From: an uncultured Candidatus Saccharibacteria bacterium
GTDB lineage: Bacteria > Patescibacteriota > Minisyncoccia > Phycocordibacterales > Phycocordibacteraceae
NCBI GenBank assembly: GCA_964634595.1
Contig: CAZWKU010000003.1
Coordinates: forward strand, 1-51,948
DNA: 51,948 nt
Reading direction: 5' to 3'
A program made the position numbers and the translations under genes. How positions within the stretch are numbered: position 1 is the first letter of the stretch; each line of letters starts with the position of its first letter. This document shows, piece by piece, positions 1,443 to 6,829 of this stretch. The notes beneath the pieces are model-generated. The model searched no databases. It had not been told where the DNA came from and saw only the letters and a program-made list of their open reading frames with translations.

Positions 1443-2596
1443 AACGCATACTCATTTTCTCTCTCGCATACTATCCGCATGTCGGCGGCGCTGAAGTCGC
1501 ACTCAAAGAGCTGACTGACCGCATGCCAGACATCGAGTGGCACATGCTCACGATGCAGTTTGGAGGGAGCCCGCACGTGGAGCGGGTAGGGAATGTCCAT
1601 GTCTACCGAATCGGTCCGCCAGCTGGCGGAGGCGGTTCGTACCTTTCAAAAATACTTTTCATACTGCGCGCCGCGAAAGCGGCGCGCGCCCTGCACCGTA
1701 CGCACCCTTTTGACGCCCTGTGGGCAATGATGACCTACATGATTTTTCCTGTTGTATTTGCAAATCTACGCATCCCTTACATCCTATCGCTTCAAGACGG
1801 CGATCCGTTTGAGCGGGTATTTCGACGCTGGTACATCCTCCCATTCTTACCACTCTTGCGAAGAGGGTTCCGTAAGGCCTCCGCAGTCACTGCGCTCTCG
1901 ACGTATCTTGCGGCATGGGCAAAAAAAATGGGATATCAAGGCGCAGTAGCCATAATACCCAATGGTGCTGATCTTGCGCGTTTTACTCCGCACGCTAATT
2001 CTATAGAGACTAGTGGCGTAGTAAACCTTGTCACCTCATCTCGTCTAGTGCACAAGAACGCGCTTGACGATGTAATTCGTGCTCTCGTGCTTCTCCCGAA
2101 AAATATTCATTTCATAATATACGGTTCAGGCAAAGAGGAGCAATCACTCAAAGAGTTGGCGCGAACCTTGAAAGTTTCTGAAAGGGTCTTGTTCAGGGGT
2201 TATGTCCCTCATGCTGAGTTAGCGCGCGCATTTGCCACGGCACACATTTTCATTCGCCCATCGCGTACTGAAGGATTTGGGGCCTCTTTTGTCGAGGCGA
2301 TGGCGGCGGGGCTCCCGGTCATCGCAACTCAAGAGGGAGGCGTTGCTGATTTTTTGTTCGACGAAAAACGAAACCCTGATAAACCCACAACAGGGTGGGC
2401 AGTCGACCCCGATGCGCCAGAGCAAATCGCGGATGCTGTAAAAGACATCATGACTAACCCAGACAAAGTCGCTCGCGTGAGAGACAGCGCTCTGGCGCTC
2501 GTACGCGAAAAGTACGATTGGGACATTATTGCGAAGCAAATGCACGCTCAATTTGAGGCCGTATTTACTCACGCGCACAACACCTTGACAAAGTAG
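1439..2596 (+). CDS. Glycosyltransferase family 4 (GT-B)
   Basis: YYPHVGGAE N-terminus; IPNGADL; FIRPSRTEGFGASFVEAMAAGLPVIAT. Confidence 0.92.
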   Translation: MKRILIFSLAYYPHVGGAEVALKELTDRMPDIEWHMLTMQFGGSPHVERVGNVHVYRIGPPAGGGGSYLSKILFILRAAKAARALHRTHPFDALWAMMTYMIFPVVFANLRIPYILSLQDGDPFERVFRRWYILPFLPLLRRGFRKASAVTALSTYLAAWAKKMGYQGAVAIIPNGADLARFTPHANSIETSGVVNLVTSSRLVHKNALDDVIRALVLLPKNIHFIIYGSGKEEQSLKELARTLKVSERVLFRGYVPHAELARAFATAHIFIRPSRTEGFGASFVEAMAAGLPVIATQEGGVADFLFDEKRNPDKPTTGWAVDPDAPEQIADAVKDIMTNPDKVARVRDSALALVREKYDWDIIAKQMHAQFEAVFTHAHNTLTK

Positions 2597-2613
2597 CCCA
2601 TAGGGTGTATACT
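2585..2613 (+). promoter_or_regulatory. Sigma70-type promoter for the orphan gene at 2772
   Basis: TTGACA (2585-2590), 17-bp spacer, TATACT (2608-2613). Confidence 0.8.
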
Positions 2614-2619
2614 ATATTA

Positions 2620-2771
2620 TAGTTCTTTGATAGCGTTACTGACTTCGCCACAGGATAGAGACGCTGATTATTTCGGCCTCTGTGCCCTGTGGTGAAAACC
2701 GCGGGTACGCAGAGCCTGCCTCGCACATTGGGTGTGGGGGTGGTACAGCGTACGCACACTAGGAGTGTGTG
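2620..2771 (+). promoter_or_regulatory. ~150-nt structured 5' leader (candidate cis-regulatory RNA)
   Basis: Hairpin A 2644-2696; mutually exclusive GAAA-capped hairpin B 2678-2714; GU-rich hairpin 2716-2743; hairpin 2753-2771 enclosing the AGGAG RBS. Confidence 0.55.
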
Positions 2772-3452
2772 ATGAAAAATGCAACTTACGACCAGATTAA
2801 GGACCTTGCCGTTCGCGTCTTAAACCTCAACAAGGGCAAACTCGACGGCGCGGCGTACGATCGCGGTACCCAGGGATTCTCGAACGAGGACGTCGCAAAC
2901 CGACTCATTGCATTCGTGAACAACGGCCTTTCTTTCATCATGAAAGGTCCGAGCGCGCTCATTATCGACCGCACCAGGTCTTTCAATCCGGTCACATTTT
3001 TCGGTAACGACTGGACGATATGGCGCGGGGCGAAAGAGAGCGATGGTCTTACGGGCGAAGAGGCTCAAGATGCCACCTCTCTCGCGCTCGCCGAGATCGA
3101 CTTTGCCAAGGCACTCTTCACAGTGTGCCTCAAAGAGGGCGAGACGACTATCACGGGCGAGGAGAAGCTTGTGCGGCATATCGCGGCGAAACACGTCCGC
3201 CTCGACGCAAGAGTTGGACAGTGTCTCTTTGAAGAAAAAGGTCAAGCGACCCTGGAATGGCTCTACCAGAACTTCGGCATAACCTGGTTCGAATTGCCTG
3301 GTACTGTTCTCCGCAACTCGGACGGCGATCGGTGCTTCCTCTATCTCTTTCGCAGCGGCGATGGTCGTTGGGGCTGGGACTGCTGCTGGCTCGACTATGT
3401 TCGGCGCGCCGGGGGCCTGTCTGCGGTTCTCGCAAGTAGCACTCAACCCTAA
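2772..3452 (+). CDS. Putative DGR variable (target) protein with CLec-like C-terminus
   Basis: AGGAG RBS at 2761-2765. C-terminus GTVLRNSDGDRCFLYLFRSGDGRWGWDCCWLDYVRRAGGLSAVLAS resembles CPR DGR target C-termini as I recall them. A-depleted NNY codons at 3312-3416. Confidence 0.7.
   Translation: MKNATYDQIKDLAVRVLNLNKGKLDGAAYDRGTQGFSNEDVANRLIAFVNNGLSFIMKGPSALIIDRTRSFNPVTFFGNDWTIWRGAKESDGLTGEEAQDATSLALAEIDFAKALFTVCLKEGETTITGEEKLVRHIAAKHVRLDARVGQCLFEEKGQATLEWLYQNFGITWFELPGTVLRNSDGDRCFLYLFRSGDGRWGWDCCWLDYVRRAGGLSAVLASSTQP
3312..3452 (+). other. Putative DGR variable region (VR)
   Basis: 28 of 35 codons in 3312-3416 end in C or T and none ends in A; only 10 A in 105 nt; invariant-looking TGG codons interleaved with GAC/TGC/GGC/TAT. 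Confidence 0.65.
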
Positions 3453-3494: not shown

Positions 3495-3519
3495 GGGCTC
3501 CGCATTTTCTGCGGAGCCC
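3495..3519 (+). terminator. Perfect 10-bp GC-rich hairpin: intrinsic terminator and/or DGR homing hairpin
   Basis: GGGCTCCGCA-TTTTC-TGCGGAGCCC followed by ATTTCTTTTAT, 42 nt after the stop codon. Confidence 0.7.
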
Positions 3520-3701: not shown

Positions 3702-5756
3702 ATGAAAGTTGTGATTGCGACTCCTCTCTACCCGCCCGAGATTGGCGGGCCTGCGACGTATACGGCGGTGCTAGAGCGAGAACTGCCAAAGCAAGGCGTT
3801 GAGGTAGAGGTGGTGAAGTTTGCTGATGCACGCCGCATGCCAAAGGTGATACGGCATCTTGCGTACTATCGCCTACTTTTAAAACGCGCAAAGAGTGCTG
3901 ATGTTATTTTTGCTCTTGACCCTGTCTCGGTGGGCCTGCCTGCCTATTGGGTAGCCAAAAAGCTCAAAAAGCCTTTAGTAGTAAAAGTGGTGGGCGATTA
4001 TGCGTGGGAGCAGGGGGTACAGCGCTTTGGTATTACCGCGTCGCTTGATGCGTTTGTGCGGGAGAGGCGCGCGCCCGTGGCGGTGCGGGTGTTGCGCGCG
4101 ATACAGACCCGCGTCGCGCGAAGCGCGACGCGCATTATTGTCCCCTCAGAGTACTTGCGCCACATTGTGAGCGCATGGGGCACGGTGGCTAACAAGGCAG
4201 GCACTGCACGACAAAAGATCGATGTGATATATAACGCAGTCCCGACGGAGCCTCCAGCACCTCTCACGACGGTGTTTGCGGACATGCCTCGCCCACGTAT
4301 CGTCTCGGTCGGTCGCCTCGTACCCTGGAAGGGTTTTGAAGGTCTTATCGATGCAGTGGCTGATCTTCGTGAAAAGGGTATACGCGCTTCGCTTGCCATT
4401 ATTGGTGATGGCCCCGATCGTGAGGCACTCAAGGGCTACCTGCGAGAGAGGCTGGGGATACATGGAGCTTGTTTGGCCGGATCTCTCTCACGTAGCGAGG
4501 TGCTTGCGGCTATAAAAAATGCAGACGTCTTCGCACTTAATTCTTCATACGAGGGCCTGTCACATGTACTTATTGAGGCGCTCGCACTTGGGGTACCTAT
4601 TGTTGCGACTCGTGCAGGCGGTAACAGTGAACTTATACAAGACGGAGTGAATGGGTTGCTGGTCCCCGTGGGTGACCCTGAAAGCCTTGCAGATGCTTTG
4701 AGCCGCGTCCTCACTGACAAGGCACTCTCGGCTAAACTTTCATTGGGAGCAAAACTATCGGCCCGGCGATTTGAGGAGCGCTCTATGATAGCGGCAACGA
4801 CCAAACTACTCACTGAAGTCGTTGCTGAGCAAAAGGCGCGGCGAGTGCTCATGATCAGTGGAGACTCAAAACTGCTAGTTGCGGGTACCGAGGCGGCAAA
4901 GCGTCTTGCGCTTCAGCGGGGTGCTGTTGAGCGTCTTGATGTCTTTGTGTGGCCACACACACATTCGTTTTTCGCAATACTACGCGCGGTACGCACTCAT
5001 GAGTACGACGTCATTACCGCGCAAGACCCTTTTTTGCGCGGCTTGCTTGCCTACGTTTTAACGCGTTTCTCTAAGGCCCGTTTCAATGTGCAGGTACATA
5101 CCGATCTTTCAGCGCAACCTTACTGGCGACACATTCTTGCTCATTTCTTACTACGTCGTGCTGATTCTATACGCGTGGTTACCGAGAAGGTTCGTGTACA
5201 GGTTGCACAGCATACTACGGCAACGCACATAACCGTGCTCCCGATTTTTACTGACATCTCACGCTTTACGCAGATAAAGCATCGCCCGCAGAAGTCTAAA
5301 AAGACCATTATGTGGATCGGTCGTTTCGAGGCTGAAAAAGATCCCCACAAAGCGCTTGCAGTCTTGCGCGAGGTGCGAGGTGCAGGAGTTGATGCTGTGC
5401 TGGTCATGCTCGGTGCCGGCTCCCTTGAACATTCGCTTGCACAAGCGGCGGCAGGGCTCCCGGTTGAGTTCCCCGGATGGGGAGACCCAGTTCAACATCT
5501 TGCCAAGGCAGACGTTGTCATAAGTACCTCAATGCATGAGAGCTATGGCGCGAGCATTATTGAAGCTCTTGCGGCAGGTGTGCCGGTGGTCTCTCTTGAC
5601 TATGGTATTGCACGCGAGGCAGGGGCGATCATCGCGTCAAAAACAGAGCTTGGCGCGCGCGTCATCGAAGTGCTTAAAACAAAAACGCGCGGCGAATTAA
5701 AACTCAAGGTACTCACCAAAGAGGAGTGGGTCGAGGTATGGCTCAAGTCACTATGA
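3702..5756 (+). CDS. Fusion of two GT4 glycosyltransferases
   Basis: MKVVIATPLYPPEIGGPATY...NSSYEGLSHVLIEALALGVP, then a second GT-B starting RRVLMISGD...SMHESYGASIIEALAAGVP; start moved to ATG 3702. Confidence 0.88.
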   Translation: MKVVIATPLYPPEIGGPATYTAVLERELPKQGVEVEVVKFADARRMPKVIRHLAYYRLLLKRAKSADVIFALDPVSVGLPAYWVAKKLKKPLVVKVVGDYAWEQGVQRFGITASLDAFVRERRAPVAVRVLRAIQTRVARSATRIIVPSEYLRHIVSAWGTVANKAGTARQKIDVIYNAVPTEPPAPLTTVFADMPRPRIVSVGRLVPWKGFEGLIDAVADLREKGIRASLAIIGDGPDREALKGYLRERLGIHGACLAGSLSRSEVLAAIKNADVFALNSSYEGLSHVLIEALALGVPIVATRAGGNSELIQDGVNGLLVPVGDPESLADALSRVLTDKALSAKLSLGAKLSARRFEERSMIAATTKLLTEVVAEQKARRVLMISGDSKLLVAGTEAAKRLALQRGAVERLDVFVWPHTHSFFAILRAVRTHEYDVITAQDPFLRGLLAYVLTRFSKARFNVQVHTDLSAQPYWRHILAHFLLRRADSIRVVTEKVRVQVAQHTTATHITVLPIFTDISRFTQIKHRPQKSKKTIMWIGRFEAEKDPHKALAVLREVRGAGVDAVLVMLGAGSLEHSLAQAAAGLPVEFPGWGDPVQHLAKADVVISTSMHESYGASIIEALAAGVPVVSLDYGIAREAGAIIASKTELGARVIEVLKTKTRGELKLKVLTKEEWVEVWLKSL

Positions 5757-6829
5757 AGCCGCTTTCGGTGTGCATGTTTGGTTTTAATGAGACCGAAGAG
5801 GGCGGACGACCGTGGATGATCAGAACAGGGCTTGAGGAGAACGGCGTCACGATCGTGCCGTGTCGTACAGGCGCAACGGGTATGCGGGCAAAATATCGTG
5901 AGCTCTACCGCCTTTGGCAGGGCGTAGGGCACGTTGACGCTCTCTATGTGGTCTTTCTTGGGTACTACCTTATGCCGCTCGCGTGGTATCTCGCGCGCGG
6001 CAGGGGGGCGCCTGTCATTCTTGATGCATTTATTTCGCTCTACGATACCGAGGTTAATGATCGTAAGCGGGTGAGGCCAGGCACTCCTCACGCGTGGTTC
6101 TTGTGGTGCGTTGATTGGCTCGCTTGTGCTCTCGCAGATGCAGTCGTCGTTGATACCCACGGTCACGGGGAGTATTTTGCGAAGCGTTATTTTGTACGAA
6201 AGGAGAAAATAATAGTGGCTCCCATTGGTTGCCGCTCTGATGTGTTTGTACCTCGTGCGAAGAGCAAGAATGCTGAGTTCACCATCGAATTTCATGGCAG
6301 GTTTATCCCGCTCCAGGGCATCGAGCATATCCTCGAAGCGGCACGTGCGTTGCAAGAGCGTGGTGAGCGCGTACGTTTTGAGATTATTGGTGACGGGCAG
6401 ACTTCCTCGCAGATGCAGGGCTTAGCGACCAAGCTCAAGCTTGCCAATGTACAATTTCTTGGTACCAAAAGTCATCGGGAGGTTGCAGAGGCTATCGCGC
6501 GAGCAGATATCTGTCTCGGCATTTTTGGCACTACTGAAAAAGCTCTGCGGGTAATACCTAATAAGGTGTATGAGTGTTTGAGCATGGGTAAGGCAGTAGT
6601 CACGGAGCGGTCGCCTGCGGCTCTCGAATATTTGCGAGATGGCGAAGAGGTTCGTATGGTGCCGCCTGGCGATGGCGAGGCACTTGCTGGTGCGATTATT
6701 GAACTCAAAAATGATCCGAACCTTCGCACGCAAATGGGGGCACGAGCGCGGGGGATAGCAGAAACTACCTTCTCTACTCGAGAGATTGTCAAAGACCTTA
6801 TTGCATGGATAGAGAGTCATCGAGTATGA
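5753..6829 (+). CDS. Glycosyltransferase family 4
   Basis: FHGRFIPLQGIEHI; CLGIFGTTEKALRVIPNKVYECLSMGKAVVT; ATGA overlap with the upstream stop. Confidence 0.9.
   Translation: MKPLSVCMFGFNETEEGGRPWMIRTGLEENGVTIVPCRTGATGMRAKYRELYRLWQGVGHVDALYVVFLGYYLMPLAWYLARGRGAPVILDAFISLYDTEVNDRKRVRPGTPHAWFLWCVDWLACALADAVVVDTHGHGEYFAKRYFVRKEKIIVAPIGCRSDVFVPRAKSKNAEFTIEFHGRFIPLQGIEHILEAARALQERGERVRFEIIGDGQTSSQMQGLATKLKLANVQFLGTKSHREVAEAIARADICLGIFGTTEKALRVIPNKVYECLSMGKAVVTERSPAALEYLRDGEEVRMVPPGDGEALAGAIIELKNDPNLRTQMGARARGIAETTFSTREIVKDLIAWIESHRV

Follow-up and report, generated by a model that had tools for sequence, protein, structure and literature searches.

A conserved folded mRNA leader family ahead of DGR-type variable-protein genes in Patescibacteria, with a possible route of maturation by RNase III

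The stretch of DNA analyzed here (the window) comprises 51,948 nt, positions 1–51,948 on the forward strand of contig CAZWKU010000003.1 in assembly GCA_964634595.1, and makes up contig C3 of a Patescibacteria genome (G000) of 623 kb in 27 contigs. Ahead of a 226-aa open reading frame (ORF) it carries a structured leader of about 150 nt, which had originally been predicted from its letters to be a switch, with two mutually exclusive long hairpins and a hidden ribosome-binding site, controlling the putative target gene of a diversity-generating retroelement (DGR). We find that the leader belongs to an uncatalogued, evolutionarily conserved family of folded mRNA leaders that stand ahead of small, retroelement-diversified proteins in the ultra-small Patescibacteria, and that the gene behind it is indeed of the DGR-target type. 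As for its function, modeled folding and the analogy with cspA of Staphylococcus aureus lead us to favor, tentatively and with a probability of roughly 0.38, a leader that is matured by an RNase III-type enzyme.

The sequence was read directly, and the region 2615–2790 was folded along with 200 dinucleotide shuffles. The leader gave −70.4 kcal/mol, compared to −52.4 ± 4.1 kcal/mol for the shuffles (z −4.37), and none of the 200 was equal or better; its structure is therefore real and well beyond chance. The parts follow one another in the order promoter, 5′ box, ACUUGC box, long hairpin P1, A-rich linker, hairpin P2, and a small hairpin around the Shine–Dalgarno (SD) sequence. In P1, TTCGCCACAGG (2644–2654) pairs with CCTGTGGTGAA (2686–2696), ATAGAG (2655–2660) with CTCTGT (2678–2683), and GCTGA (2663–2667) with TCGGC (2673–2677). 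The tip of P2 is a G/U-rich hairpin formed by CCTCGCAC (2719–2726) and GTGTGGGG (2732–2739). In the SD hairpin, CGCACACT (2753–2760) and AGTGTGTG (2764–2771) enclose AGG. All the pairings listed in the original prediction were thus recovered within one base (ATAGAG begins at 2655, where 2656 had been given), and its promoter, TTGACA-17-TATACT, is present as described.

The 5′ box has the family consensus AGUWCUUUGAUA, starting at the predicted +1. No pairing partner for it was found, either in a column covariation scan or in a pairing test against the SD/start region; in the latter, the mean z was 0.04 and own pairs did not outscore cross pairs. When every column was tested against every other for covariation, the top signals were mainly P1 and P2 pairs, and no coherent extra helix emerged that would indicate a pseudoknot, a junction or long-range pairing. 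Resemblances to a DnaA box and to the 16S 5′ end were seen by eye and were not sustained in the family consensus. A leader peptide was likewise rejected: as read from the alignment, indels of one base between close relatives interrupt the TTG...TGA frame that spans P1.

The protein collection contains 47 relatives of the 226-aa protein, every one from a bacterium of the candidate phyla radiation; homologs are annotated as Kaiserbacteria or Parcubacteria. Leaders are 73–88% identical in nucleotides where the proteins are 57–69% identical, so that conservation is higher in the leader than in the coding sequence. When 16 close leaders were analyzed by RNAalifold, P1 and P2 together yielded 37 pairs that were 97.8% paired, 10 of them with compensatory changes; none of 500 shuffles was as good, and slid alignments were 34–53% paired. 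A covariance model built from these 16 leaders (R1) matched the motif ahead of distant homologs (37–52% protein identity), at about 45 further loci.

For a broader test of P1, the first ~90 nt of 45 distinct leaders were placed in a plain MAFFT alignment that was not fitted to structure. The 22 pairs of P1 (23 with column 51–88) were 93.4% paired, and compensatory changes occurred in 18 of the 22. There were 188 doubly changed cells versus 53 expected; again no shuffle out of 500 was as good, and slid alignments were 40–51% paired. The length of P1 is conserved at 22–25 bp, insertions being confined to the apex. P2, with 16 pairs, is 95–100% paired in the close leaders and was found in about 35 of the broader set, where a model-fitted alignment gave compensatory changes in 14 of the 16 pairs and the 3×3 loop was kept, distant members included. 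The distance from P1 to the AUG is fixed at ~70–83 nt, and base identities are strongly conserved in P1, the 5′ box and the P2 internal loop. P1 also holds conserved G·U (38/45) and U·G (25/45) pairs, and R1 scored 173.6 bits on the plus strand versus 29.7 bits on the minus strand. The structure thus lies on the plus-strand RNA, as the many G–U pairs had originally been taken to indicate.

A core model consisting of the 5′ boxes and P1 (R2) was run on 151 sampled genomes of the phylum and 151 of the class. It matched in 11 and 19 of them, respectively, with no more than three copies per genome. Rfam 15 gave no match with E ≤ 10 within 2597–2771 and none at the gathering threshold in the window; for the leaders of 12 relatives it returned no family, only sub-threshold miRNA-hairpin matches on one P1. 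ARAGORN detected no known RNA, and full-text literature searches turned up no paper describing the leader. It is therefore an unclassified structured leader, as had been supposed.

The genome has a second copy of the leader (C6:37630–37795, minus strand), ahead of a 197-aa paralog that has the same C-terminus resembling a DGR variable region (VR) and no adjacent reverse transcriptase (RT) gene. The box AG(C/U)UCUUUGA is also present in the shorter leaders of both DGR cassettes of this genome (C5:39735, plus; C7:17813, minus), just 5′ of the SD and after a ~40-nt 5′ hairpin, as well as at +1 of the promoter before a 122-aa ORF (C1:74147, minus). Four of its 15 occurrences in the genome, including that at 2621 of the window, are promoter-proximal, and a fifth variant, GGGUCUUUGA, lies on C6. 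It may be noted that two database homologs, P0008 and P0012, are annotated with 25–37 extra N-terminal residues, showing 87.5% ‘identity’ to the translated window 2689–2760. These extra N-termini are nothing but the leader (window 2664–2771) translated, gene-calling artefacts to which the conserved RNA gave rise.

The original prediction held that P1 and a downstream alternative (2678–2693, GAAA, 2698–2714) interconvert and thereby gate the ribosome-binding site. Each of the two does fold alone, the alternative with −22.4 kcal/mol in isolation, and the inner part of the alternative is conserved. In the partition function of the window leader, however, the pairs of P1 had probabilities of 0.85–1.0 and the alternative ~1e-4, that is, a single dominant fold in which P1 prevails (p ≥ 0.98), an outcome that the prediction itself had named as contrary to it. 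Among the 16 close leaders the long alternative was 74.6% paired, compensatory changes were absent, and 453 of 500 shuffles did equally well; five pairs in its outer half are broken in 10–14 of the 16. It would, moreover, destroy the covarying basal part of P2, and the SD hairpin does not depend on the choice between the two. A thermodynamic switch of this kind is thus largely refuted, and we consider it very improbable.

Mutually exclusive pairing did survive in a smaller form: the inner 8 bp, 2686–2693 with 2698–2705, make up a conserved latent helix, while the 37-nt form as a whole is not conserved. The latent helix becomes the minimum free energy structure only once the 5′ strand of P1 is blocked. 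When the 3′ strand of P1 was compared with the next 30 nt in the 45 leaders, the mean complementarity z was −1.34, with 18 of 45 values below −1.64, and own strands were more complementary than cross-class ones (p = 9e-5). The corresponding controls gave 0.41 for the 5′ strand versus the upstream sequence, 0.02 for the reversed downstream sequence, and −0.37 for the 5′ strand versus the downstream sequence. The partner also changes along with P1, as in CUGCGG/CCGCAG, CUAUGACC/GGUCCUAG, and UGGCAAA/UUUGCCA. RNAs begun in silico at the 3′ strand of P1 formed a 5′-terminal hairpin abutting P2 in 34 of 39 cases; such a hairpin appeared in 29% of shuffles, and in 4 of 39 cases when the start was shifted by 12 nt. 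The folding models show a two-state design, which depends on removal or capture of the 5′ strand of P1.

The consequences for expression were sought in the terminator and the SD. No intrinsic terminator was found in the window leader, and only one of 66 leaders gave a terminator-like call, which was the P2 loop. As none of the 66 leaders has a terminator, the transcription attenuator that had also been proposed is excluded. The hidden ribosome-binding site, in the form proposed, is not supported. The stem of the SD hairpin is kept while its sequence varies in relatives (CACAC/GUGUG, UCGUC/GACGA, CACUC/GAGUG, AUCUC/GAGAU), but it conceals the SD only in part. Over the family, the SD is unpaired with a mean probability of 0.59; for the window leader, the partition function places AGG in the loop, with AG and the bases downstream paired. 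Partition functions of the P1 and latent-helix states gave unchanged accessibility of the SD hairpin and the AUG.

A precedent for the loss of a 5′ strand is the cspA mRNA of S. aureus, in which a long hairpin of the 5′ untranslated region is cut by RNase III and gives way to a short hairpin at the 5′ end (Lioliou et al. 2012, PMC3386247). This processing extends the half-life from <2.5 to >16 min and improves initiation (PMC3386247). By analogy, the long P1 hairpin would be the ground state of the primary transcript in the present family and could serve as a double-stranded-RNA processing site for RNase III. A cut near the central mismatch/G·U core of P1 would lead to the loss of the 5′ box and the 5′ strand; the freed 3′ strand (2686–2693) might then pair with the linker (2698–2705), producing a GAAA-capped hairpin at the new 5′ end that abuts P2. 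Such a 5′-terminal hairpin may shield the mRNA from 5′-end-dependent decay by RNase J or RNase Y, and the translation rate would be set by P2 and the small SD hairpin. The cleavage, its position and its effect are what we infer.

Three features of a cspA-type leader are present: a helix of at least ~20 bp near the 5′ end, 5′-terminal refolding in silico, and the RNases, since the genome encodes RNase III (PF14622, C2:2329–2715), an RMMBL RNase J-like protein (C5:6743–6952), and RNase Y (RNase_Y_N, C18). Maturation by RNase III is also the simplest account of a dominant two-turn helix, a latent helix that needs loss of the 5′ strand, and the lack of a junction, pseudoknot or terminator. The likeness to cspA thus extends to a long hairpin near the 5′ end of a ~110–150-nt leader, a shorter hairpin that its 3′ half can form at the 5′ terminus after loss of the 5′ half, a host with RNases of the Gram-positive type (RNase III, J-like, Y), and a design in which no ligand is needed. 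The two differ in that cleavage has been demonstrated for cspA and is predicted from folding here, and they share no sequence similarity. The present leader, in addition, has the conserved 5′ box and P2, and it precedes DGR variable-protein genes and not a cold-shock gene.

RNase III signals of the phage T7 R1.1 type, and those in the rnc and pnp leaders of Escherichia coli, are hairpins of about two turns with a small internal loop, and they have little primary-sequence conservation between species. P1 resembles them in its length of about two helical turns and in its small internal loop, where cleavage could define the 5′ end, but it keeps many base identities across a phylum. Several points weigh against maturation by RNase III. 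As the enzyme needs little sequence, the strong conservation of the P1 bases, of the 5′ box that would be discarded and of the P2 loop points to a partner that recognizes sequence, either besides RNase III or in its place. The refolding has no evident effect on translation, because the SD hairpin is the same in both states. The support comes entirely from folding and comparison, and the members of the family are related, so that the enrichment statistics overstate independence. Since maturation leaves the base conservation of P1, the 5′ box and P2 unexplained, an RNA-binding protein or a ligand remains a live candidate.

The leader might also act constitutively, its structures protecting a highly transcribed mRNA and throttling initiation with neither processing nor a trans factor. 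The stable fold, the location of the SD in a weak hairpin, and the near-consensus promoters ahead of nearly all printed copies (not evident in two, L132 and L133) agree with this. It would, however, leave unexplained both the latent helix, conserved in a fixed register, and the conservation of the 5′ box; besides, ~23 unpaired nucleotides would expose the 5′ end, not protect it. We regard a constitutive leader as improbable.

The ORFs downstream of the leaders are nearly all ~150–260 aa long and have differing N-terminal domains and a common C-terminal pattern, in which fixed W/G/R/L residues alternate with variable ones, the pattern of DGR variable regions. Two loci with close homologs behind the same leader, L119 and L117, have a VR plus a template repeat (TR) 455–470 nt downstream, and the VR/TR mismatches fall at TR adenines in 20 of 22 and 12 of 13 cases, respectively. 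An RT gene comes next in L119 and a bAvd gene in L117; directly after the DGR RT gene of L119 there is a bacterial RNase P RNA gene (5470–5856, minus strand). In at least seven cases of the genome sample the RT lies ~1.9 kb downstream on the same strand, and the leader therefore heads the whole target–TR–RT cassette there. The remaining copies belong to orphan or remote targets. No RT match was obtained in 7 of the 19 motif-bearing genomes, several of which are 100% complete; dependence of the leader on an active DGR was rejected on these counts.

For the VR of the window, neither a TR nor any repeat of the leader or the VR was found in the window or the genome. The two RTs of the genome, on C5 and C7, come with VR/TR pairs of their own. 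As the genome lacks a TR for it while close homologs have one, the window gene is an orphan member of the target family. The structure model of its product (P0001) had a pLDDT of 85.5. The top fold matches for residues 61–226 were almost all C-type-lectin-like and all weak (best Z 4.9; Foldseek E 0.05), and included Mtd (1yu0, Z 3.8) and TvpA (2y3c, Z 3.4) (Foldseek, VIA-align). No conserved neighboring gene was found, the contexts differing among loci.

Three weak matches from the phylum sample (L132, L133 and L138; E between 1e-5 and 6e-5) stand before small proteins that lack a VR-like end: a lipoprotein of 113 aa, a coiled-coil protein of 180 aa, and a protein of 171 aa. Either other genes make use of the leader now and then, or the matches are marginal. 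In L144 and L150 (genomes G254 and G234), intact leaders stand before truncated variable-protein ORFs of 80 and 77 aa, which are possibly pseudogenes or assembly frameshifts.

The tie to DGR targets, along with the nearly palindromic P1, which scores on the minus strand too, could be read as a sign of an element that acts in the DNA: an operator palindrome, a cruciform, or a cis site of retrohoming. We find this most improbable. The conserved G·U and U·G pairs would be A–C mismatches on the other strand, where the score is far lower, and an operator would not be expected to show compensatory change over the whole stem. The cis elements known from DGRs, the initiation of mutagenic homing (IMH) sequence and the hairpin/cruciform, are located immediately 3′ of the variable region and function in retrohoming. 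They resemble the present element in being conserved nucleic-acid structures of the DGR target gene, whereas this one is a 5′ mRNA leader ~600 nt upstream of the VR, kept in orphan targets and in the RT-less genomes. A further comparison is with the orphan riboswitch candidates and the RT-1 to RT-19 motifs, likewise conserved structured RNAs of the comparative-genomics type, of unknown partner and near reverse-transcriptase elements (Weinberg et al. 2017, PMC5737381). No Rfam 15 model, those motifs included, matches the leader or its 12 relatives; moreover, the leader is found 5′ of the target gene and not beside the RT, and persists without any RT.

The conservation of bases would be accounted for by a translational operator, the P1 core and/or the P2 loop being bound by a sequence-specific RNA-binding protein other than the encoded variable protein. 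Such a protein would repress or activate initiation; it might do so by sequestering the P1 5′ strand and so driving formation of the latent helix. Base identities within the helix and the G·U pair have been kept across phylum-level divergence, and conservation extends to the 5′ box and the P2 loop, as this would lead one to expect. The partner would have to be common to all loci, because the same leader precedes proteins with differing N-terminal domains, which also makes autoregulation by the encoded protein unlikely; nor would it belong to the DGR machinery, because seven motif-bearing genomes gave no RT. No candidate protein was identified, however, and the missing conserved neighbor and the indifference of the SD hairpin to the exchange between P1 and the latent helix also speak against an operator. 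We look on it as possible, if doubtful.

If P1 and P2 instead bound a small molecule or an ion, and this altered the ratio of P1 to the latent helix, the leader would be a riboswitch controlling the variable proteins and, where present, the DGR cassette. Its wide spread and fixed architecture over ~150 nt, the one strand with two alternative partners, and the conservation of unpaired nucleotides and internal loops are in keeping with this. On the other hand, the two hairpins of the leader are independent of each other, neither a junction nor a pseudoknot was detected, and P1 is transcribed first and favored over the alternative by ~8 kcal/mol or more. None of the 66 members has a terminator-type expression platform, and the SD is equally accessible in both states. 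The downstream genes, nearly all for DGR-type variable proteins of ~200 aa, have no metabolic or transport theme. A riboswitch is therefore decidedly unlikely.

The leader is flanked on its 5′ side by a GT4 glycosyltransferase gene (1439–2596) and on its 3′ side by the 226-aa ORF, which has no Pfam match and is embedded in a run of glycosyltransferase genes. The ORF is a one-gene unit, with its own promoter (2585–2613) and its own terminator hairpin. The coordinates of all features are collected in Table 1. The promoter is of a strong sigma-70 type and matches the consensus at 11 of 12 positions; TTGACA stands at an equal distance in nearly all printed distant copies, L132 and L133 being the exceptions. 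Transcription is predicted to start at ~2621, the conservation of the family beginning at an AG 7–8 nt past the −10 hexamer.

Table 1. Features of the leader and its gene, in window coordinates
Feature	Position	Strand	Remarks
−35 hexamer TTGACA	2585–2590	+	Invariant in 8 close leaders
−10 hexamer TATACT	2608–2613	+	17-nt spacer after −35
Conserved single-stranded 5′ box, AGUUCUUUGAUA	2621–2632	+	G6, C9, U11 and U12 near-invariant in 45 leaders
Second conserved single-stranded box, ACUGAC (family consensus ACUUGC)	2638–2643	+	45 leaders
P1, long hairpin	2644–2696	+	−30.5 kcal/mol; conserved A-N-A-G·U core
Latent hairpin, CCUGUGGU-GAAA-ACCGCGGG	2686–2705	+	−12.7 kcal/mol; 2686–2693 common to P1
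P2, three-tier hairpin with symmetric 3×3 internal loop	2705–2753	+	−24.9 kcal/mol; RNAalifold consensus
Small SD hairpin	2753–2771	+	−9.8 kcal/mol; contains AGGAG (2761–2765); ATG at 2772
Variable protein P0001, 226 aa, orphan DGR-target type	2772–3452	+	Homology to VR/TR-bearing targets
Terminator, 10-bp GC hairpin and T-tract	3495–3519	+	Ends the one-gene unit; consensus-based

Between 3453 and 3519 the window shows a pyrimidine-rich tract followed by the terminator hairpin, which is perfect and lies 43 nt past the stop codon; it occupies the place where DGR targets carry their 3′ hairpin. The promoter of the orphan gene (window 2584–2620) is nearly identical to those of both DGR cassettes of the genome (C5:39660–39700, plus; C7:17890–17850, minus). 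The likeness covers the normally free spacer, CTTGACAAA..GCC(C)AT(A/T)GGGTGTATACTATAT, which is not conserved in other genomes. From the sequences, the spacer shared within the genome suggests either a common operator or recent copying of the promoter.

Patescibacteria carry DGR loci unusually often, and the variable proteins are probably used in interactions with hosts or phages. We know of nothing that has been reported on the regulation of DGR variable proteins or cassettes in these bacteria. Since a conserved, covarying leader of 150 nt heads orphan targets as well as whole operons, these genes are under specific post-transcriptional control, and its design suggests an mRNA that is matured or controlled after transcription. 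With its defined helices, its latent 5′ hairpin and its candidate RNase III site, the leader lends itself to experimental tests, and it provides a good marker for DGR-type variable-protein genes that lack the retroelement or are remote from it. It is unlikely, though worth stating, that the leader is a dedicated sensor of DGR loci, a riboswitch or an RNA to which a signal-responsive factor binds, which would couple the expression of hypervariable proteins to a cue from the host or the environment. If that were true, the mutagenic retroelement itself would be coupled to the cue wherever the leader heads a full target–TR–RT cassette, and the leader would be the first known regulatory RNA gating targeted hypermutation.

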